Of a stretch of 17,104 nt of DNA, positions 1,358 through 17,104 are shown piece by piece. A program made the position numbers and the translations under genes. The notes below the pieces were generated by a model. The model did no database searches. It saw only the letters and a program-made list of their open reading frames with translations, and had not been told where the DNA came from. The first letter of the stretch is position 1, and the number at the start of each line of letters is the position of its first letter. Source of the stretch: a virus. Lineage: Duplodnaviria > Heunggongvirae > Uroviricota > Caudoviricetes. The stretch is from IMG/VR virus record IMGVR_UViG_2534681701_000012. The stretch is one strand, 5' to 3'.

Positions 1358-1421
1358 GGGCGTCGTTCGCTAATCATGGTCGCCGCCACTATAGCTGGTG
1401 GGCAACGACCGGGGTTGAACA

Positions 1422-3365
1422 TTAAAAATCAGCCTGACTCGGGATCAGTTTTTGCCAGATAACTGAAACGTATTTTGCCTGGTAACGGGCGTCATCAAGT
1501 GCATTATGGCGCTCACCTTCGAATGGAATAGCCGTTCTGGCATCGAAGTCTATGGCTTTCCCCAGCTCAACGATTGTGCGTACATCGCGATCGTTGTAGT
1601 AACGCCACGGGCAGGGGATCCCCTGCCGTTCGTATGAACGGCGCAAAATCGTGTTGTCGAAGTTGGCTCCATTTCCCCAAACCTGAACAAAAAATTCACC
1701 GGAGTTTTCGTCGATAAATTCCCGCAATTGTAACAGTGCATCATCTAACGGGATTTCATCGGTCATAATGGCAGATTGCGCTTCGCGTGATTGCTTAAGC
1801 CACCATTTAATGGTGTCCCGATCAATGACTCCGCCAGCAGTTTCCAGATCGATAGTCTTACTAAATTCCGGTCCCATATCTCCGGTTTGCGGATCGAAAA
1901 ATATTGCACCTATTGAGATGATCGGGGCATCAGGATTTTTTCCCATGGTTTCAAGGTCGATCATTAGATGGTCACACGTCCTGCTGGTGGATGTGATTTC
2001 TTGATGACCGTTCACCTTAATTGAGTGATCTGCCGTCTCGCCAGTTTCATTATCGCTATCGTGATGCTGATTGCCGTCAGTGTTCTCCTTGTGTGGATGT
2101 TCAGCGCCTTCCATTTCCTCCGGATCATCTTCCTGAACTTCAACCTGATACTCTTCATCGAATGTTTCCTGGTATGTTGCGTCGCCCATCACCGCGCCAC
2201 AATCAGGGCAGTTGCCGCCGCCGGTCTGACCGCAGGCGGTGCAGACTTTTTCCACTTCCTGTTGCGCCACTGGTTCAGGCTGTTTCGTTTCTGGCTCGTT
2301 TTGTAACGCATTTGGGCTGTTTTGTTCCGCTTTCTGGCCGTTCTGTTCCGTTTCTTGCTGGTTCTGATTCACTGAATCGCGGGTTTCAATCCCCTTCACC
2401 CATTTCGGATCATTCGGGTCGCTAATCCCTGCAACAAATTCACCACGTGATACAGCAAGCAACTTATTGGCGTCAGGCTGGCTGATATTGGCTGCCTGCA
2501 TAATTTTGTTTACTTCGTCAGCGGTAACTTTTACCGGCTCTGGTTGTGCGATCGTGTCAGATGCACCAGTATTTTGTTGTGAACCTGAGTACGTGCCGTT
2601 TTTACGTGCGAAGTATTCCTCTTTTGTGATTTCCGTAGCTCCCAGGGCCAGTGCTTTTTCCAGACCAGAAAGTTTGTTTGCGCGACCGTATTTTTCGCCG
2701 TCCTTATCGGTGAAAAGGAAGTAGAACGGTCCCTCACGCTCTACAGATGGTTCGTCTTCCACTTCGCATTCGGTTTTTTCGTTGTCCGGCATTGCCGTTT
2801 CCACTGCATCAGTTTCTGGTACTGGTGACGGGAGAGTACCAGCTGTGCCCTGATTTGTTCCTTCGTCATCTTCAAACACGCCCTTGGTAGTCAGGTATTC
2901 AGTGATGTATTTGTTCAGTGCTACGGGATCTTTGTGAATGTCGATCGGACGCTCACGGACAAGGCCAAAAATAGTCTGACGGTCGTAGCGAACGGCATCG
3001 GGTTGTTTGCGCATTGATGCGGAAATGCGCTTCCAGTCTTCGCGATCTTTGTCGATAACTTCATTTTTTGCCCAGCGATGGATGCTGCCGTCAATGTTTC
3101 CGGTATCAATATCGCCAGGCCAGAGAGCGTAGGCCAGTTCTTCATCCAGCGTTTTCCATGTCTGCTTGTATTCGCGACAAATGGCGGCAGTGACTGGGTT
3201 GATTTTTCCTGCTGAGTTTTCAGTGTTCTGTTGATTGACTCTGGCGCTGGCGAGATCAACAACAGACGTGTATTTTCCAGTCTCTTTGCGCTCTGCGTCC
3301 TGCCGTTTTTTCCAGTTACTTTTTCCAGTTACGTAATTCAGCCTGAATTTCGGGCCATTTGGCAC
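1422..3365 (-). CDS. Putative 3'-5' exonuclease (DnaQ/DEDDh domain at C-terminus) with zinc-ribbon and acidic linker
   Basis: 647-aa ORF. C-terminal ~190 aa carry Exo I/II/III motifs (MIDLETMG, WGNGANFD, HNALDDARY). Central CTACGQTGGGNCPDCG is a CxxC...CxxC motif. Long D/E/Q-rich low-complexity middle region. The 5' end overlaps the upstream ORF by 50 nt. Confidence 0.8.
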   Translation of the reverse strand: MPNGPKFRLNYVTGKSNWKKRQDAERKETGKYTSVVDLASARVNQQNTENSAGKINPVTAAICREYKQTWKTLDEELAYALWPGDIDTGNIDGSIHRWAKNEVIDKDREDWKRISASMRKQPDAVRYDRQTIFGLVRERPIDIHKDPVALNKYITEYLTTKGVFEDDEGTNQGTAGTLPSPVPETDAVETAMPDNEKTECEVEDEPSVEREGPFYFLFTDKDGEKYGRANKLSGLEKALALGATEITKEEYFARKNGTYSGSQQNTGASDTIAQPEPVKVTADEVNKIMQAANISQPDANKLLAVSRGEFVAGISDPNDPKWVKGIETRDSVNQNQQETEQNGQKAEQNSPNALQNEPETKQPEPVAQQEVEKVCTACGQTGGGNCPDCGAVMGDATYQETFDEEYQVEVQEDDPEEMEGAEHPHKENTDGNQHHDSDNETGETADHSIKVNGHQEITSTSRTCDHLMIDLETMGKNPDAPIISIGAIFFDPQTGDMGPEFSKTIDLETAGGVIDRDTIKWWLKQSREAQSAIMTDEIPLDDALLQLREFIDENSGEFFVQVWGNGANFDNTILRRSYERQGIPCPWRYYNDRDVRTIVELGKAIDFDARTAIPFEGERHNALDDARYQAKYVSVIWQKLIPSQADF

Positions 3366-3909
3366 CCGGATTACATTTGTGTTTAACCCATCCGATAGCG
3401 AACAGTTTGCGTTCCGGATACATAGCGTTAATTTCAGGCGTTTTCATCAGTGCTTCAACGATATGCCCGTCAAAGGTAGCAACGTCTTCCTGCAGTAATT
3501 CCTGCGCGTCAATCGCCATATCAACGGTGATGTTTTCACATGTACCGAACTTAACCAGGACCGCGTTCTGTACTTCAAGGGACAGCTTGTCAAAATTGAC
3601 GTTCATCGGATCGGATTCTGGTTCGACCGGAATAAAGGAAGCGGATTCCTCATCCCAGCGGTTTTCCTGCATATATTCAGCATCCCAGGAATCGAGGGCA
3701 GGGCGGGGTATACCGGGTTTATCCTCGCAAACAAGAAATTTATAAGCGCAGTCCTGAGCAGCCGGATAATGTTCCAGGAATTGCCAGTGAAATTTTGCGC
3801 GGGCGCGACGTTCATCACCGGCTTCAATGGCAGTGGCTACAGCGACGGCACCTTCTTCCTTTATTGCCTGTTCGTCCGGAATGGCGGCGCAAATAAAGAC
3901 TTTACTCAT
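3316..3909 (-). CDS. Hypothetical prophage early-left protein
   Basis: 197-aa ORF in the leftward operon between ydfD-like and the exonuclease, co-directional, with normal codon composition. No family recognised from sequence. Confidence 0.6.
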   Translation of the reverse strand: MSKVFICAAIPDEQAIKEEGAVAVATAIEAGDERRARAKFHWQFLEHYPAAQDCAYKFLVCEDKPGIPRPALDSWDAEYMQENRWDEESASFIPVEPESDPMNVNFDKLSLEVQNAVLVKFGTCENITVDMAIDAQELLQEDVATFDGHIVEALMKTPEINAMYPERKLFAIGWVKHKCNPGAKWPEIQAELRNWKK

Positions 3910-4004
3910 TTTGTTTTAACCTCATTACAGATTTCAGGGTGAACGAATCCCTGCCATTGCTGGCATTTTTAATCCGTTGGTATGGTGTTAATATGGCTGG
4001 AGGG

Positions 4005-4193
4005 TTATCCAGCCGGTGTTTCGTTATTCAGGTACAGCGATACTTTTTTTAGCGGGAGGCATTCACCAGAAATTTTTTGCTCGTCTCTTGCCTGGAGGCA
4101 GGATTCTTTACTTGCATAAATTCCGGTAATCACATTCTGTGATTCACCCGTTATAAGAAAAACCGTCATCATCAGTGCAAATGCTGAAGTCAT
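4005..4193 (-). CDS. ydfD: YdfD-like small protein with hydrophobic N-terminus
   Basis: 62-aa ORF whose ATG overlaps the dicB stop (ATGA). N-terminal MTSAFALMMTVFLITGE is signal/TM-like. Position directly after dicB matches ydfD of the Qin prophage. Confidence 0.6.
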   Translation of the reverse strand: MTSAFALMMTVFLITGESQNVITGIYASKESCLQARDEQKISGECLPLKKVSLYLNNETPAG

Positions 4194-4378
4194 TGACGTT
4201 CTCCGAAAATACCAAGTTCAAGAAGAGCAATTCGGGAAAGTATGGAATTATCATTGAGCAGATAAGGCTCATATTTCCTCATATTAATGGCATCTTCAGT
4301 AAACTCCCGGTTACTGAGCAGAACACCAATATCAAAACAACCTTCAGACGTATTAACGTTTGGTAATAACGTTTCCAT
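4190..4378 (-). CDS. dicB: DicB-like cell-division inhibitor
   Basis: 62-aa ORF; N-terminus METLLPNVNTSEGCFDIGV...FTEDAIN closely matches my recollection of E. coli DicB (MKTLLPNVNTSEGCFEIGV...FTEDAIN). Lies downstream of the DicF-like element, as in the Qin dicB operon. Confidence 0.8.
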   Translation of the reverse strand: METLLPNVNTSEGCFDIGVLLSNREFTEDAINMRKYEPYLLNDNSILSRIALLELGIFGERQ

Positions 4379-4556
4379 TATCGCGTCCTCAACAATGAAT
4401 TTTGTGATGCAGTGCCTGGTGCCTCCAGGTGACGTTAACCAGTTAACAATTAACGCCGGATTAGTTGATGCTCGTTACGCCCGTAAAATACCGCCTTACT
4501 GCTTTAACTGTTCCGCGTGCGCATAGCCGCATTCACCGCATCACAAAATTCACTTT

Positions 4557-4596
4557 AAAAAGGGCGGATATCCGTTTCCGCCGAATCACCAGAAAA
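4557..4596 (-). ncRNA. dicF: DicF-like small RNA (short variant) ending in an intrinsic terminator
   Basis: Minus strand reads UUUCUGGUGAUUCGGCGGAAACGGAUAUCCGCCCUUUUU. The 5' UUUCUGGUGA and 3' CCGCCCUUUUU match the ends of K-12 DicF as I recall it. 6-bp stem GGCGGA/UCCGCC with an 8-nt loop plus U-run. The following sequence toward dicB also looks like the K-12 dicF-dicB spacer. Ends approximate. Confidence 0.6.
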
Positions 4597-4897
4597 GTGA
4601 TAACAGAGGGCGTTGCTGCGGGGTTGTCACTTAAGCGTATGGTCAACCTGACAACCCGGTGTCCTCAGCGGGGAAGGAATAACCCCGCCATACTTACCGC
4701 CGCGCCATTTCGCGGATTGCCACAACCGGAAGCGCACGGTCGAATTAAATTTAACGACTACCTACAGAGAGACGAACTTCGCCGTGCGCTTTCGCGTTAT
4801 GCCCTGACTTTTCAGGGATATATCCTTTTCAGTAAACTGTCAGTGCCGGATTCTTATCCGTGTCCGGCGCACGCACTCTACCTCACCTGTGAATAAA

Positions 4898-5272
4898 TTA
4901 ATGATTAATTGATATTTTGTTGTTTGATTCAACTTTCCCATCGGATGTGTGATGCTTTAAATCACAGGAATTAATACTGCTTGCTGTAAAATGATTTTCA
5001 AGGGGAGCTATTCGAATCCCTTTCTTTTTCATTAACAAGCCAAATCCTTTATTAAGGATGTCCATTAATTCCAGGAAGTATTTTTCATGTAAATCCTGGT
5101 TATCAGAGAGCTGATTCTCTTCGCACAGACCGATAAAGGCACGACGCACGTTACCGGATATAGTATCGATGGTTTCTTTTTCTACGGTACTCAGGTCAAG
5201 AGTCGCCGGTTGGGAACGAACTATATTCGCTGCCATTTCCTGGAATTGCATTGGTAAATCTTTAAATTCCAT
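4898..5272 (-). CDS. Hypothetical protein inserted between ydfC-like and dicF-like
   Basis: 124-aa ORF with GAGG Shine-Dalgarno 7 nt upstream of the ATG, starting 22 nt after the ydfC-like stop. The 3' third is AT-rich (about 4900-5060). No recognisable motif. Confidence 0.6.
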   Translation of the reverse strand: MEFKDLPMQFQEMAANIVRSQPATLDLSTVEKETIDTISGNVRRAFIGLCEENQLSDNQDLHEKYFLELMDILNKGFGLLMKKKGIRIAPLENHFTASSINSCDLKHHTSDGKVESNNKISINH

Positions 5273-5294
5273 TATTAGCCTCGTTGGTTAGCTA

Positions 5295-5513
5295 TTAACG
5301 CGGGTATGTAATCATTCTGGCAATGCTTAATGCCGCTGCTTTTTCCAGATTAGTGATATCCTGCTCCAGAGCGGACAGATTTTCAGCCTGCTTAGCCCTG
5401 GCTTCATTGGCCCATTTCAGATCCTGCGCTGCATTAATTTTCTGGTGCATCCACTCATAAAGTTCATCATCGGTATAGTCTGGCGCGATGATGACGGGTT
5501 CTCGTTTCTGCAT
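5295..5513 (-). CDS. ydfC: YdfC-like small protein
   Basis: 72-aa ORF third in the leftward operon; size and position match ydfC of the Qin dicB operon. Predicted coiled-coil-like sequence. Confidence 0.65.
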   Translation of the reverse strand: MQKREPVIIAPDYTDDELYEWMHQKINAAQDLKWANEARAKQAENLSALEQDITNLEKAAALSIARMITYPR

Positions 5514-5542
5514 ACTGATTCCTCGCGGTGCTGTTTCGCTTA

Positions 5543-5671
5543 TCAGCCGTTAGATTTTGCCGAACTGGAAAGCGCCTGTTTAAATTCGTTGAAGCTGAGA
5601 GCTTCTTCGCCTTCGGCAAGACCTTCGAAGTATTCTTCGTAAGCCTTTTCCATGATTGTGTCGAAATCCAT
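5543..5671 (-). CDS. ydfB: YdfB-like 42-aa protein
   Basis: Hand translation gives MDFDTIMEKAYEEYFEGLAEGEEALSFNEFKQALSSSAKSNG; it is below the ORF-track size cut-off. ATG lies 1 nt after the ydfA-like stop. Length and sequence match my recollection of YdfB. Confidence 0.6.
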   Translation of the reverse strand: MDFDTIMEKAYEEYFEGLAEGEEALSFNEFKQALSSSAKSNG

Positions 5672-5672
5672 A

Positions 5673-5828
5673 TCACTCACCTGAGTTTCTTTCCAGCCAG
5701 CGACGGGCACCATTTTCGGTTTTAAACGTTTTGCTTTTGGTATACGTCATCGCGGTGAATGTGCCCTCCTGGTTGGGAAACACGCCGTACACCAGAGATT
5801 CGTTGTTGCCAAGCTCGATAGTATCCAT
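5673..5828 (-). CDS. ydfA: YdfA-like 51-aa protein
   Basis: Hand translation gives MDTIELGNNESLVYGVFPNQEGTFTAMTYTKSKTFKTENGARRWLERNSGE; below the ORF-track cut-off. First gene of the leftward operon after the repressor, as in Qin. Confidence 0.65.
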   Translation of the reverse strand: MDTIELGNNESLVYGVFPNQEGTFTAMTYTKSKTFKTENGARRWLERNSGE

Positions 5829-6024
5829 GCTGACCTCATTTCCCCTTAACGCCGGGTGGCGGAACTAAAACCTACAGCGCCGTGCTGTTCTTGATAGAGA
5901 TATTAGTAACGCGGATATTTTAAGTCAACAGTATGGCGTATGATATTTTTGATTTGGTAACTATGTAAATGTTTTTTCAAGGGAAAAATATTAGTTATAC
6001 AGCTGATTTGCAGAAGTTATGGCA

Positions 6025-6057
6025 CAAAAAAACCGACTAAGACGTCGGTTTTTTTGT
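6025..6057. terminator. Bidirectional intrinsic terminator downstream of the repressor gene
   Basis: AAAAAAACCGAC-taagac-GTCGGTTTTTTT: 7-bp GC-containing stem flanked by an A-run and a T-run, 25 nt beyond the repressor stop. Confidence 0.55.
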
Positions 6058-6081
6058 TGTGGATGGGGTAGTGAGCGGTGG

Positions 6082-6543
6082 CTACTGGTTACGTTTCTTT
6101 AGTGCCAGCATGTTCTCGAAGGCTTCCTCGTAGAGCTTGTTTAGTCCACGTAGCTGGTTAAGGAGTTTGGCTTTTTCTGACGCAGGTAGAATCTCGAAGA
6201 GGTTAAGTAACTCTGCCTGTTCTTCATTGACCAGCCTCCATCCTTTGCCTGAAAAGTTATCATCATAAGTATCTGATGATCTTACATAATTCATTAAGTC
6301 TTTAAGGTCTTCTCGAATGTCCTCTGGTTTTACCTTTAACAGAGCCGCAAATTTTAGCGCAGCGTCGGTATTTACCGGTATCTTGCCGTTCAGATACTGG
6401 CTAACGGTGCCTTGAGATTCGAATCCCAACAACTCAGCCGCCAGCTCTTGAGTCAGCTTCAGCTCTTTTTTTCTTGCATTCCATGCGGCTTTTAAATTCT
6501 TGCTCGCTTCTGGAGTTGCAATCACTTCGCGTGTTTTTTTCAT
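6082..6543 (-). CDS. CI/DicA/RacR-like HTH repressor (XRE family)
   Basis: 153-aa ORF with HTH LTQELAAELLGFESQGTVSQYLNG, transcribed divergently from a Cro-like gene across a 100-bp AT-rich intergenic region. Confidence 0.85.
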   Translation of the reverse strand: MKKTREVIATPEASKNLKAAWNARKKELKLTQELAAELLGFESQGTVSQYLNGKIPVNTDAALKFAALLKVKPEDIREDLKDLMNYVRSSDTYDDNFSGKGWRLVNEEQAELLNLFEILPASEKAKLLNQLRGLNKLYEEAFENMLALKKRNQ

Positions 6544-6644
6544 ACATAGAGTTTATTTGTTTTACCAATATTATCAAAGATAGTCTGGCTATTGATCTTT
6601 AAAATTAGCGGGGCTAATATTTGCTCGAGGCATAACGTAGAAGG
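6544..6644. promoter_or_regulatory. Divergent promoter/operator region of the immunity switch
   Basis: AT-rich 101-bp spacer between divergent repressor and Cro-like genes. Contains TATCAAAGATAG and CTATTGATCTTTAAAATTAG, related to TTGATAGAGATAT at 5891-5903. Operator assignment is inferential. Confidence 0.45.
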
Positions 6645-6926
6645 TTGGCTATGAACTTAAGAGACTATTTAAAAGAGAAACATATCACCCAGCTACAGTT
6701 TGGGAAGCTAACGGGTTTATCTCAGGTGCATGTAAGTCGAGTGCTGGGGGGCTATGAAAGATTCAGCCCTGAAAAAGCATTACGTGTTGCTGAAGTAACG
6801 AATTTCGAGGTTACACCTCATGAACTCCGGCCTGATATTTACCCGAATCCAACCGACGGCTTACCTGTTGGATTCAAGGCTAACACACCAAATGCATCGG
6901 AGTTGATTCATGAAAATCAGGCATGA
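6645..6926 (+). CDS. ydaS: Cro/YdaS-like HTH protein
   Basis: 93-aa ORF with HTH LQFGKLTGLSQVHVSRVLGG, first gene of the rightward operon, overlapping the next gene start. Resembles Rac YdaS. Confidence 0.75.
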   Translation: MAMNLRDYLKEKHITQLQFGKLTGLSQVHVSRVLGGYERFSPEKALRVAEVTNFEVTPHELRPDIYPNPTDGLPVGFKANTPNASELIHENQA

Positions 6927-7335
6927 GCACATCCGCATGGCGATGAATGCCTGGGCGCATCCGGACGGTGAAAAAGTTCCGGCAGCTGAAATAACCCGGG
7001 CTTATTTTGAGCTTGGTATGACGTTCCCGGAATTATATGACGACAGCCATCCGGAAGCCCTGGCTCGCAATACCCAGAAAATTTTCCGCTGGGTGGAGAA
7101 AGACACTCCTGATGCGGTTAAAAAAATTCAGGCGTTGTTACCAGCGATCGAAAAAGCAATGCCGCCTCTGCTGGTGGCCCGAATGCGCAGCCACAGTTCA
7201 GCTTATTTTCGGGAGCTGGTGGAGACGCGGGAACGACTGGTGAGAGACGCTGATGATTTTGTCGCAGTGGCGATCGCTGGTTTCAACCAGATGAATCGTG
7301 GTGGCCCGGCGGGAAATATTGTGGTTGTGCATTGA
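6910..7335 (+). CDS. ydaT: YdaT-like protein (CII-position regulator/toxin family of Rac-type prophages)
   Basis: 141-aa ORF; GGAG Shine-Dalgarno 7 nt upstream. Sequence MKIRHEHIRMAMNAWAHPDGEKVPAAEITRAYFELGMTFPELYDD matches my recollection of Rac YdaT. Confidence 0.75.
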   Translation: MKIRHEHIRMAMNAWAHPDGEKVPAAEITRAYFELGMTFPELYDDSHPEALARNTQKIFRWVEKDTPDAVKKIQALLPAIEKAMPPLLVARMRSHSSAYFRELVETRERLVRDADDFVAVAIAGFNQMNRGGPAGNIVVVH

Positions 7336-7406
7336 CTGACAATATTCATACCGGACCGCTTCCGGTAATTCGTGAGTAAAAAGATTCGGTATCAGAAGAG
7401 GTGAGT

Positions 7407-8447
7407 ATGGCTAATGCCTGGCTCAGGTTATGGCATGACATGCCAAATGATCCTAAGTGGCGAACAATTTCCAGGGTGTCAGGACAGCCAATTGCAACAG
7501 TGATGGCGGTGTATATCCACCTTCTGGTGAGCGCGTCACGAAATGTCACGACATGTCACGGCGTGTCACTACGTGGTCACATTGATGTCACGACGGAAGA
7601 TTTAGCAAGTGCGCTTGATGTGACGGAAGAAGTAATTGATTCAATTTTACAGGCAATGCAGGGGCGGGTACTTGATGGAGATTTAATCACCGGATGGGAA
7701 AAACGCCAGGTACTGAAAGAGGACAATGGCAACGTTTCACAAACCGCGAAATCCCCGGCAGAGCGCAAGAGAGCGCAGCGCGAGAGGGAAAAATTACGAA
7801 AACAGAATGAGGGGTGTCACGACGAGTCACGCATATGTCACGACATGTCACGACGAGTCACGACAGATAAAGATACAGATAAAGAATTAAACCCCACACA
7901 TAACGCGCACGTGCGCGAGAGTGCTCCGACCAGTGAGTCGAGTGGTACGCCGTTGCAGGCAGCAGAACCTGCATCCCTGGATGGACTGAGCGAACCCATC
8001 GGGAAATTTCCGATGGTCGATGACTGGCATCCGTCGCCGGATTTTCGACGACGGGCTGCGTTGTGGGGGATGGCTTTGCCGGAGCCGGAATTTACACCTG
8101 CTGAACTTGCCGCTTTCTGGGACTACTGGGCAGCGGAGGGGAAAGTTTTCACGCAGGTTCAGTGGGAGCAGAAATTCGCCCGTCACGTAAATCACGTCAG
8201 GGCGCAGGTTAAGCCAGTCAGCAAGGGGGTAAACCATGCAGCAGCACCAGGTGGCACCGCATCACGGGCAGTTCAGGAAATTCGGGCAGCACGTGAGCAG
8301 TGGGAACGTGAAAACGGATTTATCAGCGACGGAAACGGTCTGGAAGCTGTGGGAACTCATGGGGGAGGTTTATTCGAACCGCTGGACCCAGAAGAACGGG
8401 GCCGCACCTTCGAAGCTCTGGATTGCACAGATTGGCGCGATGACTGA
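7407..8447 (+). CDS. Replication initiator / replisome organiser (functional analogue of lambda O)
   Basis: N-terminal MANAWLRLWHDMPNDPKW fits the phage replisome-organiser N-terminal motif. Iteron clusters lie inside the ORF and a P-like gene follows. Start taken at ATG 7407 (GAGGTG Shine-Dalgarno) rather than GTG 7401. The 3' end is uncertain because of the long overlap with the next gene. Confidence 0.75.
   Translation: MANAWLRLWHDMPNDPKWRTISRVSGQPIATVMAVYIHLLVSASRNVTTCHGVSLRGHIDVTTEDLASALDVTEEVIDSILQAMQGRVLDGDLITGWEKRQVLKEDNGNVSQTAKSPAERKRAQREREKLRKQNEGCHDESRICHDMSRRVTTDKDTDKELNPTHNAHVRESAPTSESSGTPLQAAEPASLDGLSEPIGKFPMVDDWHPSPDFRRRAALWGMALPEPEFTPAELAAFWDYWAAEGKVFTQVQWEQKFARHVNHVRAQVKPVSKGVNHAAAPGGTASRAVQEIRAAREQWERENGFISDGNGLEAVGTHGGGLFEPLDPEERGRTFEALDCTDWRDD
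7535..7893. repeat. Putative replication origin: two iteron clusters plus AT-rich tract inside the O-like gene
   Basis: GTCAC(G/T) repeated 6 times at 7535-7591 and 5 times at 7815-7861, spaced 10-11 bp (one helical turn). Second cluster is followed by AGATAAAGATACAGATAAAGAATTAAA. Confidence 0.6.
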
Positions 8448-8901
8448 GCAGCAAATCCGACAGGTCTGCCGCCAGTGCATGGACCGCTGCCGGGCGGGTG
8501 AAACATGGCCTCCGGACCTGGCTGAGTTTGTGGCGCTGATTTCGGAGAGCGGAGCCAATCCATTCGGTCTGACGGTGGATGCTGTGATGGAGGAGTACCG
8601 CCGCTGGCGCAATGAGTCCTGGCGATATGACGGAAGTGATAAGTACCCGTGGCCTCAGCCTGTGCTGTATCACATTTGCCTTGAGATGCGTTCAAAGGGG
8701 ATTGAGCGCCAGATGACCGAAGGGGAATTAAAACGGCTTGCAGAACGGCAGCTGACGAAATGGGCAAAGCATGTTAGTAACGGCCTGAGCGTTCCGCCAG
8801 TCCGGCGACAACTGGCGGCACCCAAACGCCCGTCGGGGCCAACGCCAATTGAGTTGCTGAAACAGGAATATGAACGCCGGAAAGCGGCTGGGTTTGTTTG
8901 A
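8236..8901 (+). CDS. Lambda P-like replicative helicase loader
   Basis: 221-aa ORF; C-terminal half (YPWPQPVLYHICLEM...GELKRLAERQLTKWAKHV) aligns by eye with lambda P (YPWKSNAHYWLVTNL...AELRRKAADELVHM). AAGGGGG Shine-Dalgarno 7 nt upstream of ATG 8236. Overlaps the O-like ORF by 212 nt; alternative starts at 8359 or 8440. Confidence 0.8.
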   Translation: MQQHQVAPHHGQFRKFGQHVSSGNVKTDLSATETVWKLWELMGEVYSNRWTQKNGAAPSKLWIAQIGAMTEQQIRQVCRQCMDRCRAGETWPPDLAEFVALISESGANPFGLTVDAVMEEYRRWRNESWRYDGSDKYPWPQPVLYHICLEMRSKGIERQMTEGELKRLAERQLTKWAKHVSNGLSVPPVRRQLAAPKRPSGPTPIELLKQEYERRKAAGFV

Positions 8902-8933
8902 GTTGAGAAGTAATTTTTACCGGGAGGAAATTT

Positions 8934-9687
8934 ATGGAGACTGTTTTTGACGCACTGAAAGCGATGGGAAAAGCCACGTCGGTAGAGCTGGCTGCGCGAC
9001 TTGATATCAGTCGTGAAGAAGTGCTGAACGAACTATGGGAACTGAAAAAGGCTGGTTTCGTTGATAAAAGCGCGTACACCTGGCGTGTGGCTGATAACAA
9101 CGTTCAGCAGGAACAGCCAGCGCAGGCAGAACTGCCGGAAGAAACCACCACAGCAACAGTAGCGAAAATCTCAGAGTGCGATTTAACCGCAACGATTGAA
9201 CAACGCGGACCACAAACGGCGGATGAACTGGCTACGTTTTTTCGGCATCACATCACGCAAAGTGGCTTCAACGCTGGCAATGGCAATCAGTAAAGGTCGT
9301 CTGATTCGCGTTAATCAGAACGGTAAATTTCGTTACTGCATGCCGGGCGATAATTTACCAGCAGAGCCGAAAGCTGCATCGGTAGCGGAAACTGATGGTA
9401 AAGCCTTTCCTCAGCCAGCCGGTGTTGCGTTACCAGTACTGGAAGCTGCAACACAGGAAGATATTAAAACCGAAACTGTGGCGGACATTGTGCAGTCGTT
9501 GCCATCGTTTACTGAAACGCAAGCGGATAACCTGATTTTACCATCGCTGCATATAGCAAATCGTGAACTGCGTCGGGCGAAAAGTCATGTCCAGAAGTGG
9601 GAACGAGTCTGCACCGCGCTGCGGGAGCTGAACAAGCACCGGGATATTCTTCGGGATATTACCGCGACCGGAGAGCTGCAGCGGTGA
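8934..9687 (+). pseudogene. Tandem winged-helix protein gene split by a 1-nt frameshift in a T6 run (possibly DUF1627-type)
   Basis: ORF 8934-9293 (GGGAGG Shine-Dalgarno) and ORF 9196-9687 overlap in different frames. Reading through T6 at 9237-9242 as T5 joins ...TADELATFF to [23 protein letters not shown], a second copy of the N-terminal wHTH-like segment [30 protein letters not shown]. Fused product would be about 251 aa. Confidence 0.55.
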
Positions 9688-10001
9688 GTGGCTGGAAGAA
9701 GTGGTACGAGGCTGAAATCATGATACTCCGGCAGTGTGCGGGAACGATGACGGTCGAAAGCATTGGGAGGCTGACCGGTCGTACAGGTGATGCTGTCAGA
9801 ACGAAAGCGCGGGAACTGGGTGTCAGCCTGATGTTACGGGGTGATTATCACCAGTCAACAAAATATCCGCAGAGTGATATTGAACTGGCGCGACAGCTGC
9901 ATCAGCGTGGCGTACCCAGGAGAGAAATCGCCAGAAAATTTGGAATGCCGTTGCGCACAGTGAATAACTACGTTTATTTCGACAGGAGAGTTCAGGAGTG
10001 A
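9684..10001 (+). CDS. Small HTH-containing protein
   Basis: Likely starts at GTG 9684 overlapping the upstream stop (GTGA), with GGAG upstream; the track ATG at 9597 lies inside the previous gene. C-terminal [32 protein letters not shown] is HTH-like. Confidence 0.5.
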
Positions 10002-10294
10002 GGGTGAGAGTTTATATTGCCGGTCCAATGACCGGGTATAAAAATTTCAACCGTGAGGCGTTCCACAAGGCGGAAGAGGAACTGAAACGGGAAGGGCATA
10101 CAGTCTTGAACCCGGCAGTACTTCCGGATGGGCTGACACAGCCGCACTACATGGATATTTGCATGGCAATGATTCGTTGTGTGGATGCGATTTACATGCT
10201 GAAAGGCTGGCAGCGGTCAGCAGGTGCTAAGGCAGAACTGGCGCTGGCGGAGAAACTGGGGCATGCAGTTATTTTCCAGGAGGAGGTACAGTGA
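9998..10294 (+). CDS. DUF4406-like protein (nucleoside 2-deoxyribosyltransferase-like fold, by recollection)
   Basis: 98-aa ORF, GTG start overlapping the upstream stop; N-terminal VYIAGPMTG is a Rossmann-like glycine-rich motif. Family name from memory only. Confidence 0.6.
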   Translation: MRVRVYIAGPMTGYKNFNREAFHKAEEELKREGHTVLNPAVLPDGLTQPHYMDICMAMIRCVDAIYMLKGWQRSAGAKAELALAEKLGHAVIFQEEVQ

Positions 10295-10566
10295 ATATCG
10301 ACGCAACAATGACGATTGGTACGGCCCTCAATACGGGGTTGGCGCTTCCTGGTTGGTGCTACATCATGTTCTGCTCATGGCGGTGGCTGTCACTGATGTT
10401 ACTGAAAGAATGGAATAAACGCTGTAAACAGACGCAGCGGCAGAAGGCAATGAATGCGTTTTTTGAGACCTTCGATATTGACAGTATAGAACCAGGAGAG
10501 CCAGCTCGCGTGATTAGCAGAGGTGACGTTGTAATTCTTGTATACCGGAGTGAAGAGAAAGCATAA
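10291..10566 (+). CDS. Small predicted membrane protein
   Basis: 91-aa ORF with GTG start overlapping the upstream stop (GTGA); hydrophobic segment IGTALNTGLALPGWCYIMFCSWRWLSLMLL. Confidence 0.45.
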   Translation: MNIDATMTIGTALNTGLALPGWCYIMFCSWRWLSLMLLKEWNKRCKQTQRQKAMNAFFETFDIDSIEPGEPARVISRGDVVILVYRSEEKA

Positions 10567-10671
10567 TCCAAATCTGAATAATTAAATCCAGCACTGTAAA
10601 TAAAATTTAATCCTTAACCGGAGGGATTTCTGCACCCTCAGAACATCAGGAGGCCGCCTGAAAGGGCGGTA

Positions 10672-11094
10672 ATGAAAATGACTGAATTAACAAAAGAACA
10701 ATTAATCGAAGAAGCCAAATTAAAAATAGCGATTACGAAATGCCACCCCAATTCAGGGATGGCGCGAGTAGAGGGCGAGTTATTCAAAATTGCACTGGCA
10801 TCGCTGGAAGCAGAGCCGATAGCGTGGCGATATCGCTACGTGAAAAAAGGTGTTATGGACTCTCAGGGGGAGTTGTGGGTTGGTGACTGGAAATATGTAC
10901 CGAAAAAAGAGGATTGTAACGACAGGCCGAACTATGAAATTCAGGCCTTATTCACTGCCCCACCAGTCCCGGTTACATCAGAAGAACTGGTTAAAGCTGT
11001 GCACTTTTATGAACAACTAAAACGCGAAAATCCACCAGCATCCGGCAACCAGATTAATGGGTTAACTATGCCGGTTAAACGACCAGCCGACTGA
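10672..11094 (+). CDS. Hypothetical nin-region protein
   Basis: 140-aa ORF with AGGAGG upstream (separated from the ATG by a hairpin) and normal composition. No motif recognised. Confidence 0.65.
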   Translation: MKMTELTKEQLIEEAKLKIAITKCHPNSGMARVEGELFKIALASLEAEPIAWRYRYVKKGVMDSQGELWVGDWKYVPKKEDCNDRPNYEIQALFTAPPVPVTSEELVKAVHFYEQLKRENPPASGNQINGLTMPVKRPAD

Positions 11095-11305
11095 AAAACG
11101 GAAACCTGATTACAGATTCCCAGATAAGGCAATGAGCTACCTGGCGTAGAGTGGGCTGATAAGTATGGGGAATGTTTTACGATGAATATTTAGACTAAAG
11201 AGTTTGTAACGCTATGTAAGTGATTTTTTCTGGTTTAGATATTTATATGTCCGGCCAAATTGAGGTGTGTTTAAATGTAATTGCACATTGATTGTAGGGG
11301 GAATA

Positions 11306-11485
11306 ATGAAAAACGCATTGCAGTTTTTGTTTGTTGCGTTCTGGTTGTTCGCATCATGTATGCCCATCATCTTCACAGCAAGGTATATGGAAAAAATTGA
11401 TGTTTTGATATTAATGTTTGGACATATAAATGCCCTTTTTTTAGGGGTGTTCATGGCGGTCACGTGCATTGAATACTGGCGGTAA
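11306..11485 (+). CDS. Small two-helix hydrophobic protein in AT-rich island
   Basis: 59-aa ORF from ATG 11306 with AGGGGGA Shine-Dalgarno; two predicted TM segments (LQFLFVAFWLFASCMPIIF and INALFLGVFMAVTCI). The ORF-track version (11267) starts upstream at a poorer site. Confidence 0.45.
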   Translation: MKNALQFLFVAFWLFASCMPIIFTARYMEKIDVLILMFGHINALFLGVFMAVTCIEYWR

Positions 11486-11744
11486 ATACAGCGAACGCTA
11501 TTGGTTTAGTTGGATATTTACTGTGCCGGACAAAAACGGTTTGCAGGGAAATCTTAGTTAAGTAGAATGACTGTGGGTGCTTGAGGCTATCTGTCTCAGG
11601 CATGAACACCAAAAGGCAGATAGAGAAAAGCCCCAGTTAACATTACGCGTCCGGCAAGACGCTTAACATTAATCTGAGGCCATATCTATGCTCTACACAC
11701 GTAGGTTAGCCTCTTACGTGCCGAAAGGCAAGGAGAAGCAGGCT

Positions 11745-11900
11745 ATGAAGCAGCAAAAGGCGATGCTAATCGCCCTGATCGTCATCTGTTTAACCGTCAT
11801 AGTGACGGCACTGGTAACGAGGAAAGACCTCTGCGAGGTACGAATCCGAACCGGCCAGACGGAGGTCGCTGTCTTCACAGCTTACGAACCTGAGGAGTAA
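11745..11900 (+). CDS. hok: Hok/Gef-family membrane toxin (HokD/RelF-like)
   Basis: 51-aa product MKQQKAMLIALIVICLTVIVTALVTRKDLCEVRIRTGQTEVAVFTAYEPEE has the Hok signature (TM helix, RK..LCE.R, EV..F.AYE). AGGAG Shine-Dalgarno 9 nt upstream. Confidence 0.85.
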   Translation: MKQQKAMLIALIVICLTVIVTALVTRKDLCEVRIRTGQTEVAVFTAYEPEE

Positions 11901-11970
11901 GAGACCGGGCGGGGGAGAAATCCCTCGCCACCTCTGATGTGTCAGGCATCCTCAACGCACCCGCACTTAA

Positions 11971-11996
11971 CCCGCTTCGGCGGGTTTTTGTTTTTA
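11971..11996 (+). terminator. Intrinsic terminator downstream of hok
   Basis: CCCGC-ttcg-GCGGG followed by TTTTTGTTTTT. Confidence 0.6.
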
Positions 11997-12119
11997 TTTT
12001 CAACGCGTTTGAAGTTTTAGATGGTGCCGGAATAGAATCAAAAATACTTAAGTAGCGCGCAGGGAGAAGAGGGATGGACCCCGAAGGGGAAGAGCTATTT
12101 ATCTGGAAGGATTCTGAAG

Positions 12120-12293
12120 ATGAAAATCGAAGAATTACGTGAAATTTTTAGTGAAGATGGCCTCTATGCTGTGCGCGTTGAGAATGGGGGTATTACCTAC
12201 ACAGCGTTAATTCCTGATGATCATGTAGTGTTATCTGTTGAGGCATTCATTGAATACTTGGAAAGACTCGGTTTCAAGGTAGTTCGGGAATAA
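12120..12293 (+). CDS. Hypothetical 57-aa protein
   Basis: Hand-translated ORF MKIEELREIFSEDGLYAVRVENGGITYTALIPDDHVVLSVEAFIEYLERLGFKVVRE with GGAAGG 9 nt upstream; below the track cut-off. Coding status uncertain. Confidence 0.35.
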   Translation: MKIEELREIFSEDGLYAVRVENGGITYTALIPDDHVVLSVEAFIEYLERLGFKVVRE

Positions 12294-12352
12294 GTTATAA
12301 TACGTGAGCCAGCCTGAACAACTGGCAACCTGCAGCGCCATTGGAGATGACA

Positions 12353-12625
12353 ATGGCGCATAATTTCAAATTTCGCAATTCTGATTCTGCCTTTGCCAGC
12401 AGGCACGGGTGGCGTTCTTACGCATTCAAATATGACTGGTATCAGCACGATCCCTGTACTGAAGAACAGGCCGAATGGCTGATTCATAACTACCGCAGAC
12501 GTGGATATGAGTTTAGGAAAGCCCTCACCCTCGATTATCGTCACTGGATAATCTACGTCAGACTCCCTTATTCCGAACGCCCACCGCGTCCGTCCCGCAC
12601 ATTCCAGCAACGCATCTGGAGGTAA
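12353..12625 (+). CDS. Hypothetical protein upstream of DUF968 gene (position analogous to rem in Qin)
   Basis: ORF likely starting at ATG 12353 (MAHNFKFRNSD...) with GGAG upstream. Its stop is 1 nt before the GTG start of the next gene. Confidence 0.55.
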   Translation: MAHNFKFRNSDSAFASRHGWRSYAFKYDWYQHDPCTEEQAEWLIHNYRRRGYEFRKALTLDYRHWIIYVRLPYSERPPRPSRTFQQRIWR

Positions 12626-12626
12626 C

Positions 12627-13673
12627 GTGCGGGTATTACTTCGACCTGTTCTGGTACCGGAACTCGGGCTGGTGATCGTTAAGCCGGGCCGTGAATCCAT
12701 GCCGGTATTCCACAATACCCGGGTACTGGTGGAGCCGGAACCGAAAAGCATGCGTAATCTGCCGTCCGGGGTCGTTCCTGCCGTTCGCCAGCCGCTGGCG
12801 GAGGATAAATCATTACTGCCATTTTTCAGCGACGAACGAGTGATTCGTGCTGCTGGTGGCGCTGGCGCATTGTCTGACTGGTTACTGCGCCATGTTAAAT
12901 CCTGCCAGTGGCCACACGGCGATTATCACCACAGTGAAACCGTCATTCACCGTTATGGTACCGGCGCAATGGTGTTGTGCTGGCACTGCGACAACCAGCT
13001 GCGCGACCAGACCTCCGAATCACTCGGGCAACTTGCTCACCAAAACCTGTCTGCATGGATGATTGACGTCATACGCCATGCAATGAATGGCTCGCAGGAA
13101 CGGGAATTATCGCTGGCTGAATTATCCTGGTGGGCGGTCCGCAATCAGGTGGCGGACGCGCTACCGGAAGCGGTATTACGTCGTTCGCTGGGGTTGCGTG
13201 CGGAAAAAATCCGCTCAATGTACCGTGAAAGCGACATCGTACCGGGAGAGCAGACCGCCACCAGCATACTGAAGCAGCGCACAAAAAATCTTGCGCCGCT
13301 GCCTCACGCCCACCAGCAAAACCCGCCACAGGAAGAGACGGTGGTCAGCATTGCCGTTGATCCTGAGTTTCCGGAATCTTTCATGAAACGACCTAAACGT
13401 CGCCGCTGGGTTAACGAGAAATACACACGCTGGGTGAAGACACAGCCGTGTGCGTGTTGTGGTAAGCCAGCCGACGATCCCCATCACCTGATTGGTCATG
13501 GTCAGGGCGGAATGGGGACAAAATCTCACGATATTTTCACGCTACCGCTGTGTCGGGAGCATCACAACGAGCTTCATGCGGATCCTCTGGCGTTCGAAGA
13601 AAAGCATGGTTCTCAGGTTGATTTAATTTTTCGTTTTCTTGATCACGCCTTTGCAACTGGCGTGCTTGGGTAA
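12627..13673 (+). CDS. DUF968-like protein with C-terminal HNH-like zinc-binding motif
   Basis: 348-aa ORF, GTG start with GGAGG Shine-Dalgarno 5 nt upstream. C-terminal CACCGKPADDPHHLIGHGQGG...LCREHHNELHADP resembles HNH/zinc-finger motifs of YdfU-like prophage proteins. Confidence 0.75.
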   Translation: MRVLLRPVLVPELGLVIVKPGRESMPVFHNTRVLVEPEPKSMRNLPSGVVPAVRQPLAEDKSLLPFFSDERVIRAAGGAGALSDWLLRHVKSCQWPHGDYHHSETVIHRYGTGAMVLCWHCDNQLRDQTSESLGQLAHQNLSAWMIDVIRHAMNGSQERELSLAELSWWAVRNQVADALPEAVLRRSLGLRAEKIRSMYRESDIVPGEQTATSILKQRTKNLAPLPHAHQQNPPQEETVVSIAVDPEFPESFMKRPKRRRWVNEKYTRWVKTQPCACCGKPADDPHHLIGHGQGGMGTKSHDIFTLPLCREHHNELHADPLAFEEKHGSQVDLIFRFLDHAFATGVLG

Positions 13674-13685
13674 AAGAGGTGACTG

Positions 13686-14060
13686 ATGCTCATAGATTTG
13701 GTTTTACCTTACCCGCCGACGGTGAACACTTACTGGCGACGCCGTGGCAGCACATATTTTATCTCGGAGGAGGGAAAGCGTTATCGCCGGGCTGTGGCGC
13801 TTATTGTTCGCCAGCAGCGGCTGAAATTAAGCCTGTCCGGAAGGCTGGCGATAAAGGTGATTGCAGAGCCACCGGATAAGCGTCGTCGCGACCTGGACAA
13901 TATCCTGAAAGCACCGCTGGATGCGCTGACGCATGCGGGAGTGTTAATGGACGATGAGCAGTTTGATGAAATCAATATCGTTCGTGGTCAGCCAGTATCT
14001 GGTGGACGTATGGGGGTGAAGATTTACCCCATAATGCATGAAGAGCAGGTCAAAAAATGA
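13686..14060 (+). CDS. rusA: RusA Holliday-junction resolvase
   Basis: 124-aa ORF; LPYPPTVNTYWRR and RRRDLDNILKAPLDALTHAGVLMDDEQ correspond to RusA motifs (K-12 RusA: [39 protein letters not shown]). Confidence 0.85.
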   Translation: MLIDLVLPYPPTVNTYWRRRGSTYFISEEGKRYRRAVALIVRQQRLKLSLSGRLAIKVIAEPPDKRRRDLDNILKAPLDALTHAGVLMDDEQFDEINIVRGQPVSGGRMGVKIYPIMHEEQVKK

Positions 14061-14878
14061 AACTGGAAGATTTACCGAAATACTACTCCCCAAAATCCCC
14101 TGGCCTGACCGATGCATCGGCCTCAACGTCAAAAGATGCGCTGAGTATCACTGATGTGATGGCCGCGCAGGGCATGACACAGAATCGGGCTGAGATGGGG
14201 TTTTCTGCGTTCCTGGGGAAAATGGGCATCAGTATGAATGACAGGGCGCGGGCAACAGAATTACTGGCAGATTATGCACTCAGTCGGTGCGATCGTATGG
14301 CGGCGTTGAGAAAACTTCCGGCAGAAATAAAACCGGTAGTGATGCGCATTATGGCTTCGTATGCGTTTGAAGATTATGCCCGTAGCGCGGCGAGCAAAAA
14401 ACAGTGCCCCTGCTGTCACGGAAAAAAATTTATTGAAAGCGAGGTTTTTACAAACAAGATCCAGTATCCGGATGGTAAGCCACCAGTGTGGGCAAAGTGC
14501 ACAAAAGGCGTGTATCCGTCTTACTGGGAAGAATGGAAAAAAGTCAGGGAGGTGGTAAAAGTTGCCTGTCCGGAGTGTGGCGGAAAGGGTGAGGTTTCCA
14601 CCGCCTGTAAGGATTGCCGTGGGCGTGGTGTCGCCATTCATCGTGAAGAGTCGGTAAAACGTGGTATGCCTGTTATCAGAGATTGCCAGCGTTGTGGTGG
14701 TCGTGGCTATGAAAGACTACCATCAACGGAGGCATTTAATGCCATACGCAAAGTGACGAGTGCTATCACGCTTGATACGTGGAAAAAATCAGTGAAACGC
14801 TTTTACGATACGTTGGTGGTTCGGTTTGACATTGAAGAGGCATGGGCGGAGCGGCAGTTAAAGAGGGTAACGCGATAG
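14057..14878 (+). CDS. Late-gene antiterminator Q-like protein with CxxCxGxG zinc-finger repeats
   Basis: 273-aa ORF whose ATG overlaps the rusA stop (ATGA). Repeated CPCCHGKK, CPECGGKG, CKDCRGRG, CQRCGGRG motifs. Followed by a promoter/terminator pair at the expected PR-prime/tR-prime position. Confidence 0.7.
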   Translation: MKLEDLPKYYSPKSPGLTDASASTSKDALSITDVMAAQGMTQNRAEMGFSAFLGKMGISMNDRARATELLADYALSRCDRMAALRKLPAEIKPVVMRIMASYAFEDYARSAASKKQCPCCHGKKFIESEVFTNKIQYPDGKPPVWAKCTKGVYPSYWEEWKKVREVVKVACPECGGKGEVSTACKDCRGRGVAIHREESVKRGMPVIRDCQRCGGRGYERLPSTEAFNAIRKVTSAITLDTWKKSVKRFYDTLVVRFDIEEAWAERQLKRVTR

Positions 14879-14884
14879 TGTTGT

Positions 14885-14912
14885 TGATTTTTCCCGAATC
14901 TGTGGTAGATTC
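14885..14912 (+). promoter_or_regulatory. Candidate late promoter (PR-prime-like) with Q-utilisation region
   Basis: TTGATT (14885-14890), 16-bp spacer, TAGATT (14907-14912), 7 nt after the Q stop. Confidence 0.45.
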
Positions 14913-14960
14913 GCTCTAACGATGGGCGTTTTATGCCTGACGTTAGAAGGATTTTTACAG

Positions 14961-14984
14961 CCCGCCATCGAGCGGGTTTTTTAT
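14961..14984 (+). terminator. Intrinsic terminator (tR-prime-like) about 50 nt downstream of the candidate late promoter
   Basis: CCCGC-catcga-GCGGG followed by TTTTTT. Confidence 0.6.
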
Positions 14985-15117
14985 ATCTGGAAAGCGGTGC
15001 ATAACGTTAAACGTGATGGCGATTGCGCAATGAGTTTCTCCTTCTCTGAAGTCTCTTGACTGCATGGAATCTCCTTTGTTATGTAAGGTGAGTTGATGTT
15101 TTAAAATTGTTAGAGAG

Positions 15118-15329
15118 ATGGGTATGGATGACAGCACTCTGCTGAGGAACTCTTCACTTTTTATTGCTTATATGGGCTGTCTTGGATGGGGAAGCGCTTA
15201 TTTCTATGGATGGGGGACTTCCTTTTATTATGGCTTTCCATGGTGGATCGTCGGGGCTGGCGTTGATGATGTGGCCCGAAGTTTGTTTTATGCTGTGAGC
15301 GTTATCGTTATATTCCTTACTGGATGGGG
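15118..15329 (+). pseudogene. 5' fragment of an aromatic/glycine-rich membrane protein gene, truncated by IS1
   Basis: ORF 15118-15351 runs into the IS1 left inverted repeat, so its last codons (GGMLPTY) and stop are IS1-derived. Hydrophobic W/G/Y/F-rich sequence. Start codon weakly supported. Confidence 0.35.
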
Positions 15330-15384
15330 GGGGATGCTGCCAACTTACTGATTTAGTGTATGATGGTGTTTTTGAGGTGCTCCA

Positions 15385-15660
15385 GTGGCTTCTGTTTCTA
15401 TCAGCTGTCCCTCCTGTTCAGCTACTGACGGGGTGGTGCGTAACGGCAAAAGCACTGCCGGACATCAGCGCTATCTCTGCTCTCACTGCCGTAAAACATG
15501 GCAACTGCAGTTCACTTACACTGCTTCTCAACCCGGTACGCACCAGAAAATCATTGATATGGCCATGAATGGCGTTGGATGCCGGGCAACAGCCCGCATT
15601 ATGGGCGTTGGCCTCAACACGATTTTACGTCACTTAAAAAACTCAGGCCGCAGTCGGTAA
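15385..15660 (+). CDS. insA: IS1 InsA
   Basis: 91-aa product [42 protein letters not shown]... matches IS1 InsA (zinc finger plus HTH). Confidence 0.9.
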
Positions 15661-16082
15661 CCTCGCGCATACAGCCGGGCAGTGACGTCATCGTCTGCGC
15701 GGAAATGGACGAACAGTGGGGCTATGTCGGGGCTAAATCGCGCCAGCGCTGGCTGTTTTACGCGTATGACAGGCTCCGGAAGACGGTTGTTGCGCACGTA
15801 TTCGGTGAACGCACTATGGCGACGCTGGGGCGTCTTATGAGCCTGCTGTCACCCTTTGACGTGGTGATATGGATGACGGATGGCTGGCCGCTGTATGAAT
15901 CCCGCCTGAAGGGAAAGCTGCACGTAATCAGCAAGCGATATACGCAGCGAATTGAGCGGCATAACCTGAATCTGAGGCAGCACCTGGCACGGCTGGGACG
16001 GAAGTCGCTGTCGTTCTCAAAATCGGTGGAGCTGCATGACAAAGTCATCGGGCATTATCTGAACATAAAACACTATCAATAA
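15579..16082 (+). CDS. insB: IS1 InsB reading frame (expressed as InsAB' transposase by -1 frameshift)
   Basis: Open -1 frame overlapping the insA 3' end; contains the [22 protein letters not shown]...[10 protein letters not shown] region of IS1 transposase. Slippery A6C site at 15634-15642. Confidence 0.85.
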
Positions 16083-16098
16083 GTTAGAGTCATTACCG

Positions 16099-16800
16099 GC
16101 TACATCGACAGTAATTCCAGGAGATATCACCACGCTAAAGGGAGATGTCAGTAAAACTAAGGAAGATATTTCCTCAATTAACGGAAAAGTATCAACGCTT
16201 CAGACTGATATGACCAGTACAAAGCAGGATATCAGTACCAGATACACAAAAACTGAAGTTGATAATAAGCTGAAAAACAAACTGGAAGTGAATGCTTTGG
16301 AAAGCGGTAATTATGGTGGAGATTTTTACCCGCTGACTGGTCGTGAAGCATTTTATTTATGGAATTTGGGCACGACTACAGCGGCGGCAAACCTTTATCT
16401 TAATCCTGACCCTGCAATTTCGTCTGTACTGCGGTCAACATCGTCTATTCGCTATAAACATTCAGTAGAGACGATAGATTCAGAGCACGCCGATCTCATT
16501 TTCAAGATGCGCCCTGTGTGGTACAGGTCGCAATGCGAAAATGACAGGCGCGATTGGGGATTCTATGGATTGATTGCCGAGGAAGTAGGAGAAATTGCCC
16601 CTCAGTTTGTTCACTGGCGACCAGCCAACGAAGATGATGCACCGGAAACCATTTCCAGCAATGGCCTTGTTGCCGAAGGTGTAATGTACGAACGTCTGGT
16701 TGTTCCACTGATTCACCATATCCAGAAACTGACTGAAAGAGTTGATGAACTTGAGTCAGAATTGAAGTTGTTATCAACTTCCCAAAGCGATATCGGATAA
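16099..16800 (+). pseudogene. 3' fragment of a tail-fibre gene (C-terminal intramolecular-chaperone / S74-like domain)
   Basis: The frame is open from the IS1 right end with no start context. Product has tail-fibre-like heptad repeats (TLKGDVSKTKEDISSINGKVSTLQTDMTSTKQDIS) followed by a C-terminal domain (ESGNYGGDFYPLTGREAFYLWNLG...GLIAEEVGEIAPQFVHWR...ERVDELESELK) resembling auto-cleaving tail-fibre chaperone domains. Confidence 0.65.
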
Positions 16801-16810
16801 AGGAGGAGTA

Positions 16811-17104
16811 ATGGATATAACACCTTTTCTTCATGCGCTTTGTGCTGTGGCTGCGCAGGTACTGGTTGGTCTTTTTACCGGAAACTGGGCTTACGGGACG
16901 ATAGCCGGTTGTACGTTCTTCATTGCGCGTGAACACACCCAGGCAGAATATCGCTGGATTGAAATGTTCGGGCATGGCAAGCGGATTAACATGCCGTGGT
17001 GGGGCGGTTTTGATCCGCGTGCGTGGGATGTAGCAAGCCTGATGGATTTTGCTGTGCCGGTGGTGGCGTGTCTGCTGGTCTGGCTGTTGGTTAATCGTGG
17101 GTGA
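16811..17104 (+). CDS. Hypothetical membrane protein downstream of tail-fibre remnant
   Basis: 97-aa ORF with AAGGAGG Shine-Dalgarno 5 nt upstream and two hydrophobic segments. Stop codon is the last 3 nt of the window. Confidence 0.5.
   Translation: MDITPFLHALCAVAAQVLVGLFTGNWAYGTIAGCTFFIAREHTQAEYRWIEMFGHGKRINMPWWGGFDPRAWDVASLMDFAVPVVACLLVWLLVNRG

Follow-up and report, generated by a model that had tools for sequence, protein, structure and literature searches.

An IS1 element without target-site duplication at the joint of a probable late-region deletion in an ompW-site lambdoid prophage of Escherichia coli

IS1 adjacent deletions were reportedly described by Reif and Saedler in 1975 in the gal region of E. 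coli. The flhDC deletion next to IS1 in strain MG1655 is a documented IS1 adjacent deletion (PMC12844343), and loss of the DNA beside a resident IS copy is treated as a standard class of mutation (PMC4300727). The locus described here lies in a window of 17,104 nucleotides (the whole stretch of DNA that was analysed, virus record IMGVR_UViG_2534681701_000012), and it is like those E. coli deletions in that the IS is kept, the DNA on one side is lost from the exact IS terminus, and no duplication surrounds the surviving copy. It is unlike them in that a prophage late operon was lost and in that the end product is what is at hand, from a natural isolate, for which we infer a single-IS route.

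DLP12, Rac and Qin are cryptic or defective lambdoid prophages of E. coli K-12. A pool of defective prophages is also found in O157 Sakai, in which lambdoid elements have decayed by IS insertions, deletions and frameshifts (PMC2669165). The element in the window resembles these prophages in what is kept (int, repressor, replication genes, Q, dicB and hok/sok) and in what is lost (lysis and morphogenesis genes), and also in the means of loss, i.e., deletions, IS elements and frameshifts. It differs from them in its location at the ompW site of E. coli P0298942.1 and in that one clean IS1 joint corresponds to the whole late-region loss. The IS1-linked loss of the late region at this locus is an undescribed but ordinary instance of a well-known route of prophage decay.

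The IS1 element and its unmatched flanks

Contig AQET01000028.1 of E. coli P0298942.1 matches the window at 100% identity. A complete IS1 of 768 bp occupies positions 15330-16097 on the plus strand, with exact boundaries given by end-to-end alignment with four annotated IS1 copies (IS1A/IS1B) of other E. coli. The element has the length (~768 bp) and the ~23-bp imperfect terminal inverted repeats of IS1: the left repeat (IRL, 15330-15352) begins GGGGATGC and carries one substitution, T to G at base 3, and the right repeat (IRR, 16075-16097) is the same as in a mobile IS1A allele. The insA (15385-15660) and insB' (15579-16082) frames, both on the plus strand and taken from the ORF list, are joined by the A6C (AAAAAAC) -1 frameshift site at 15636-15642, and the precomputed Pfam matches of the identical contig include Zn_ribbon_InsA, HTH_Tnp_IS1 and DDE_Tnp_IS1. 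When the element was compared with the IS1A copy of E. coli 510016 (comparator locus L002), which is annotated as a transposase with programmed frameshift, the sole mismatch was at IRL base 3 (GGT to GGG). The 510016 copy transposed normally, since it is bounded by a 9-bp duplication in yciE (AGGCTCTAT on both sides), and it shares the IRR variant GTTAGAGTC with the window IS1; this right-end variant is therefore a natural allele. At the left terminus, positions 15330-15333 read GGGG versus GGTG, as seen in all assemblies of the strain group that reach there, and the run of eight G residues at 15326-15333 arises from this GGG. The GGT to GGG change might impair transposition if it is older than the deletion event.

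A simple IS1 insertion is accompanied by a duplication of the target, usually of 9 bp. Here the element is preceded by TGGATGGGG (15321-15329) and followed by GGCTACATC (16098-16106), 9 bp in each case, and a repeat search across the element found no direct repeat of any length spanning IS1. By comparison, 9-bp duplications were clear in all three control IS1 insertions, namely the yciE copy of 510016, a copy 185 bp upstream of the same tail-fibre-domain gene as the one that borders IS1 here (ACGTGATAG on both sides, locus L003), and a copy within a homologous post-Q gene (GGCTGGGTT on both sides, locus L023). A preliminary description made from the window alone had reported near-canonical IS1 ends at 15330-16097 and the lack of a target-site duplication, and both observations stand, the former with exact coordinates and a right end now found in a mobile allele. 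The absent duplication is no argument against the identity of the element as IS1; it shows that a rearrangement came after insertion.

The flanking genes and the interval absent between them

The last intact gene before the left breakpoint is the Q antiterminator gene (14057-14878, plus strand, 273 aa; Pfam Antiterm PF03589, E=4e-50). The contigs found to carry its exact allele all belong to the same strain group, and on them IS1 comes next or the contig ends within ~30 bp of the junction. The intergenic region between Q and the late operon (14879-15117, plus strand) is collinear with comparator loci L001 and L005 at 99.5-99.8% identity, and a terminator scan located two terminator-like hairpins, each followed by a T run, at 14912-14928 and 14959-14978. 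In the Rfam search of the window only sok was matched, with nothing between Q and IS1.

Next to IS1 lies the 5' remnant of a post-Q membrane-protein gene (15124-15329, plus strand), which comprises 68 codons plus 2 nt of 237 (70 codons if counted from an upstream ATG at 15118) and whose ORF reads seven codons into IS1 to a stop at 15351. The remnant is 100% identical to L005 32421-32632 and L001 20239-20450. The full-length homologue is WP_001585556.1, a hypothetical membrane protein of 237 codons, and the family (PF27470/phrog_1521) is frequent in enterobacterial prophages as a putative membrane protein; in the literature the Pfam name "TfpB" was found in type IV pilus papers only, with no visible link to the post-Q prophage gene. 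The ORF past Q had been described as truncated, and the comparison agrees: the match to the intact 237-codon gene halts exactly at 15329, past which the intact relatives read AGTAGGTATTG and the window reads IS1. A related prophage with the same post-Q gene is present in E. coli E300010 (L001 4318-37979), where it lies between potC and potB in the potABCD operon and has undergone a tail-gene loss of its own, a truncated tail tube gene being followed directly by fibre remnants.

On the right, a tail-fibre-domain gene without start codon extends from 16098 to 16800 (plus strand) and consists of the G of an ATG, 233 codons and a stop. The frame is open from 16069, and similarity to relatives begins exactly at 16098. 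E. coli 510016 reads gagggagacaaATGGCTACATCGACAG at position 19999 of L002, and the window picks up at GGCTACATC, on the final G of the start codon; the gene has thus lost its native Shine-Dalgarno sequence together with the first two bases (AT) of the ATG, 233 of the 234 codons are kept, and the first canonical in-frame start that is left is the ATG at 16210. The encoded protein has a predicted Peptidase_S74 domain at residues 115-171 (27.5 bits versus the Pfam gathering cut-off of 22), which would place it among the tail-fibre C-terminal chaperone modules, and tail-fibre PHROGs are also matched. It reads like a fibre C-terminus because its match to phrog_3299 (E=1e-138) covers positions 1148-1384 of 1385, that is, the last 237 positions of a tail-fibre family. 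The preliminary description took the right-hand frame to be open from its first base and to encode only the C-terminal part of a tail fibre. The open frame, the onset of similarity at 16098 and the homology to the C-terminus of long fibres were borne out, but the gene is not a C-terminal fragment of a larger one: the relatives have a separate 234-codon ORF, annotated in 510016 as "tail fiber domain-containing protein", with its own Shine-Dalgarno sequence and ATG and located after a separate 92-codon ORF. Judged by these alignments, this prophage lineage has a small, separate tail-fibre-domain gene at the right-hand position, and in the window it is essentially whole except for its start codon and ribosome binding site. 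Its usual downstream partner, a 97-aa ORF (16811-17104, plus strand; phrog_1443, E=2e-58) with a strong Shine-Dalgarno sequence (AAGGAGG), is intact, and this gene order is kept in L002, L003, L004 and L017. The exact 97-aa product is on record as ENA20756.1 (E. coli P0298942.1).

Over window positions 1-15329 the closest relative is an intact prophage of ~45 kb adjacent to ompW in E. coli 025542-1 (99% coverage, 98.9% identity). In that prophage the post-Q gene is followed by tRNA-Ile, tRNA-Arg, TerB, two holins, an M15 endolysin, terminase and portal genes, and further on by a protease-capsid fusion, tail genes, J, lom and a 1132-codon side tail fibre with its assembly protein; the right arm ends with a methyltransferase, Rha, ash and an ompW fragment. 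The source contig of the window runs 251 bp beyond the window end (L008 13049-13299), and this extension matches the junction of the tfa C-terminus and the methyltransferase at 97% identity to 025542-1 and 99.6% to 510016. Since the extension rejoins the right arm of 025542-1, the interval that is missing or replaced measures 27,339 bp (025542-1 coordinates 2916325-2943663). The tfa-remnant/methyltransferase junction is present twice in several comparators, which is probably why the source contig stops there. In the intact prophage of MINF_1A, the start of the tail-fibre-domain gene lies 24.5 kb downstream of Q, and both genes are on one strand. The size of the deletion is given as a range, ~24.5-27 kb, with the ancestral late region deduced from two different relatives, because the two genes, post-Q and S74, were found together in no comparator prophage (the former alone is present in 025542-1, E300010 and IHE3034, the latter alone in 510016 and MINF_1A).

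No late-gene remnants were detected in the window by tblastx against four late regions, which matched only the two flanks, and ARAGORN found no tRNA genes in it, in agreement with the earlier observation that lysis, terminase, head and tail genes are missing between Q and the tail fibre. The alignment to intact lambdoid prophages that had been suggested as a check places both flanks on the plus strand in collinear arrangement, with similarity ending at the IS1 termini (15329 and 16098) as in an IS-associated deletion, and with the ~24.5-27 kb absent between them. The order of the flanks (Q, late genes, tail fibre) is that of intact lambdoid prophages. An inversion was considered in place of a deletion and rejected, as both flanks keep their natural order and strand. 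The ancestor would accordingly be pictured, from these relatives, as having had a full late region, and the lost content would probably have included the tRNAs, holins, endolysin, terminase, portal, capsid and tail genes, J, lom and most of the side-tail-fibre cluster.

Possible origins of the joint

The left junction, including the GGG end, is identical in at least six sister assemblies and two Logan read assemblies, the contigs of which stop inside IS1; the only contig that crosses the element is AQET01000028.1 of P0298942.1, a draft assembly. A 75-aa fusion product of the post-Q remnant and IS1 is on record on 13 contigs, and the exact 97-aa product to the right of IS1 on AQET01000028.1 only. 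Neither the 77-aa fusion ORF nor the 196-aa product from the internal ATG gave an exact match; the annotated products use other start codons. Neither IS1 junction was present in 5,426 complete E. coli genomes, and exact scans found the left junction in no metagenome contig and the right junction in no species-representative genome. A precursor with the same IS1 at either site plus a duplication was likewise found neither in the 5,426 complete E. coli genomes nor in the scanned contig collections. A reciprocal junction would read from the right terminus of IS1 into TGGATGGGGAGTAGG, or from GACAAATGGCTACATC into the left terminus (strings GTCATTACCTGGATGGGGAGTAGG and GACAAATGGCTACATCGGTGATGC). 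Among 114 clusters of post-Q homologues there was no reciprocal fragment, i.e., a C-terminus starting at the breakpoint. One candidate, P0037, starts three residues past the breakpoint, but it is an internal gene call at the edge of a 980-bp contig without IS1 from an unrelated strain, and the reading of it as a reciprocal junction was dropped.

The preliminary description attributed the joint to an IS1-mediated adjacent deletion or to recombination between two IS1 copies, and this pair of routes is supported by the exact breakpoints, the missing duplication and the collinearity with intact relatives. We lean, with about even confidence, to the view that an ompW-site lambdoid prophage lost its whole late region by a deletion that left one IS1 at the joint, with adjacent deletion by a single IS1 as the favoured route. 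On that route an IS1 would first have landed at one of two sites, the post-Q gene or the start of the tail-fibre-domain gene. From there it would have transposed replicatively within the molecule into the other site (an intramolecular "adjacent deletion"), so that the DNA between the sites would be removed and IS1 kept with unrelated 9-bp sequences on either side. A tentative second reading, which we consider possible with a clearly smaller probability, is that two IS1 elements of like orientation inserted independently, the first in the post-Q gene and the second at the tail-fibre-domain start codon, and that homologous recombination between them removed the late region together with one IS1; the surviving element would be a hybrid, bordered on the left by the flank of the first copy and on the right by that of the second. 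The product is the same, with no duplication and with collinear flanks that end at the IS1 termini, and since both routes leave TGGATGGGG on the left and GGCTACATC on the right, the sequence cannot choose between them. What keeps the two-copy route plausible is the recurrence of IS1 in both neighbourhoods in other strains (L003, L004 and L023), with two copies around the same small genes in L004. However, a single insertion at these exact sites was found in no strain searched, and the IS1, one base off a known allele, displays no mosaic, although identical parents would leave none anyway. The two-copy route also needs three events, whereas the single-IS1 route needs two, and for this reason we favour the latter.

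The remaining explanations call for much less credence. An assembly artefact, in which at least two IS1 copies in the genome led to the joining of the wrong flanks through the repeat while the late region lies elsewhere in the strain, would fit the fact that one contig alone crosses IS1 and alone carries the exact 97-aa product, all sister contigs stopping inside the element. We nevertheless regard it as unlikely in view of the recurrence of the left junction with its GGG end among the sister and Logan assemblies, the fusion product on 13 contigs, and the lack of a reciprocal C-terminal post-Q fragment, the one candidate being a contig edge in an unrelated strain; moreover, the flanks keep their natural order and orientation at the joint, an outcome that chance mis-joining would not favour. 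It is very improbable that the flanks derive from two prophages, the early half of the one at ompW having been fused by IS1-mediated recombination or transposition to the right end of the other, with deletion or rearrangement of the chromosome in between. In 025542-1, which is closest to the left part, the tail-fibre module is indeed a different one without the S74 gene, and the S74 module occurs in prophages at several chromosomal sites, but such a difference in the nearest relative is expected, since lambdoid phages are known to exchange their tail-fibre modules. The exact integrase allele adjoins ompW in every context read, and the 510016 prophage at the same ompW site has the same right-end module at 98.8% identity, then the same tfa remnant and methyltransferase arm, a right arm that 025542-1 shares as well. 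The integrase context, together with the shared site and module in 510016, makes one prophage with an internal deletion the economical reading.

We give hardly any weight to the idea that the joint is not neutral decay and that Q-dependent or IS1-derived transcription drives the small right-end genes as a retained, selected module. The idea starts from the exact end of the deletion at the tail-fibre-domain start codon and from the retention of Q, the putative late promoter region and the 97-aa membrane ORF with its strong ribosome binding site; on this view, GGT to GGG at the IS1 terminus would lock the arrangement.

The remaining prophage and related IS1 joints

What is left is a defective lambdoid prophage, with the early and regulatory module present and the lysis and morphogenesis modules absent from the window. 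The retained genes are int, xis, an HTH repressor gene, YdaS/YdaT, DnaT-like and lambda-P replication genes, RusA and Q, together with a cro-like gene, dicB, hok/sok, rem and DUF968. The hok/sok locus (11575-11900) lies in the early-right region, with a sok match of 117 bits in Rfam and the hok ORF at 11688-11900, and is followed by a Rem-family ORF at 12120-12293. The element is presumably incapable of cell lysis and of particle assembly.

The early and accessory genes had been thought intact, and this proved incorrect for two of them, which are frameshifted relative to 025542-1. In the exonuclease gene on the minus strand there is a 13-bp tandem duplication (TTTTTCCAGTTAC twice, 3307-3319 and 3320-3332) that is absent from 025542-1 and that splits the 824-codon gene into ORFs at 1422-3365 (647 codons) and 3316-3909 (197 codons). 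The 250-codon DUF1627 gene has T6 at 9237-9242 versus T5 in 025542-1 and is thereby frameshifted into ORFs at 8934-9293 and about 9280-9687, with the same split calls in all sister assemblies. Between dicB and the next minus-strand ORFs, 223 bp of the window (4892-5114) do not align with the corresponding 518 bp of 025542-1, and several small indels are present just upstream, at 4568-4826.

A similar joint was found in the prophage of E. coli JCC-EE 7 (NZ_CP101922.1, L004), where an IS1 without duplication joins a truncated late gene to the vicinity of the tail-fibre-domain and 97-aa genes. The breakpoints differ, a head-decoration gene being on the left and a position 85 bp upstream of the tail-fibre-domain gene on the right; the element is an IS1B-like allele with nine mismatches, and the deletion is smaller. 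The IS1-bounded deletion of JCC-EE 7 is an independent event. IS1 copies cluster near the tail-fibre-domain/97-aa gene pair in unrelated E. coli (L003 12001-12769; L004 11998-12765 and 13977-14740), as one simple insertion, one independent deletion joint and one copy just downstream, and the region may be an AT-rich hot spot for IS1.

For annotation, the element is best recorded as a defective ompW-site lambdoid prophage with an IS1-bounded late-region deletion, both flanking genes being pseudogenes, and it should not be counted as an inducible phage. The locus offers a worked example of how an absent target duplication, combined with comparison to intact relatives, reveals an IS-associated deletion, and it shows recurrent IS1 insertion in the vicinity of this tail-fibre module among E. 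coli prophages.
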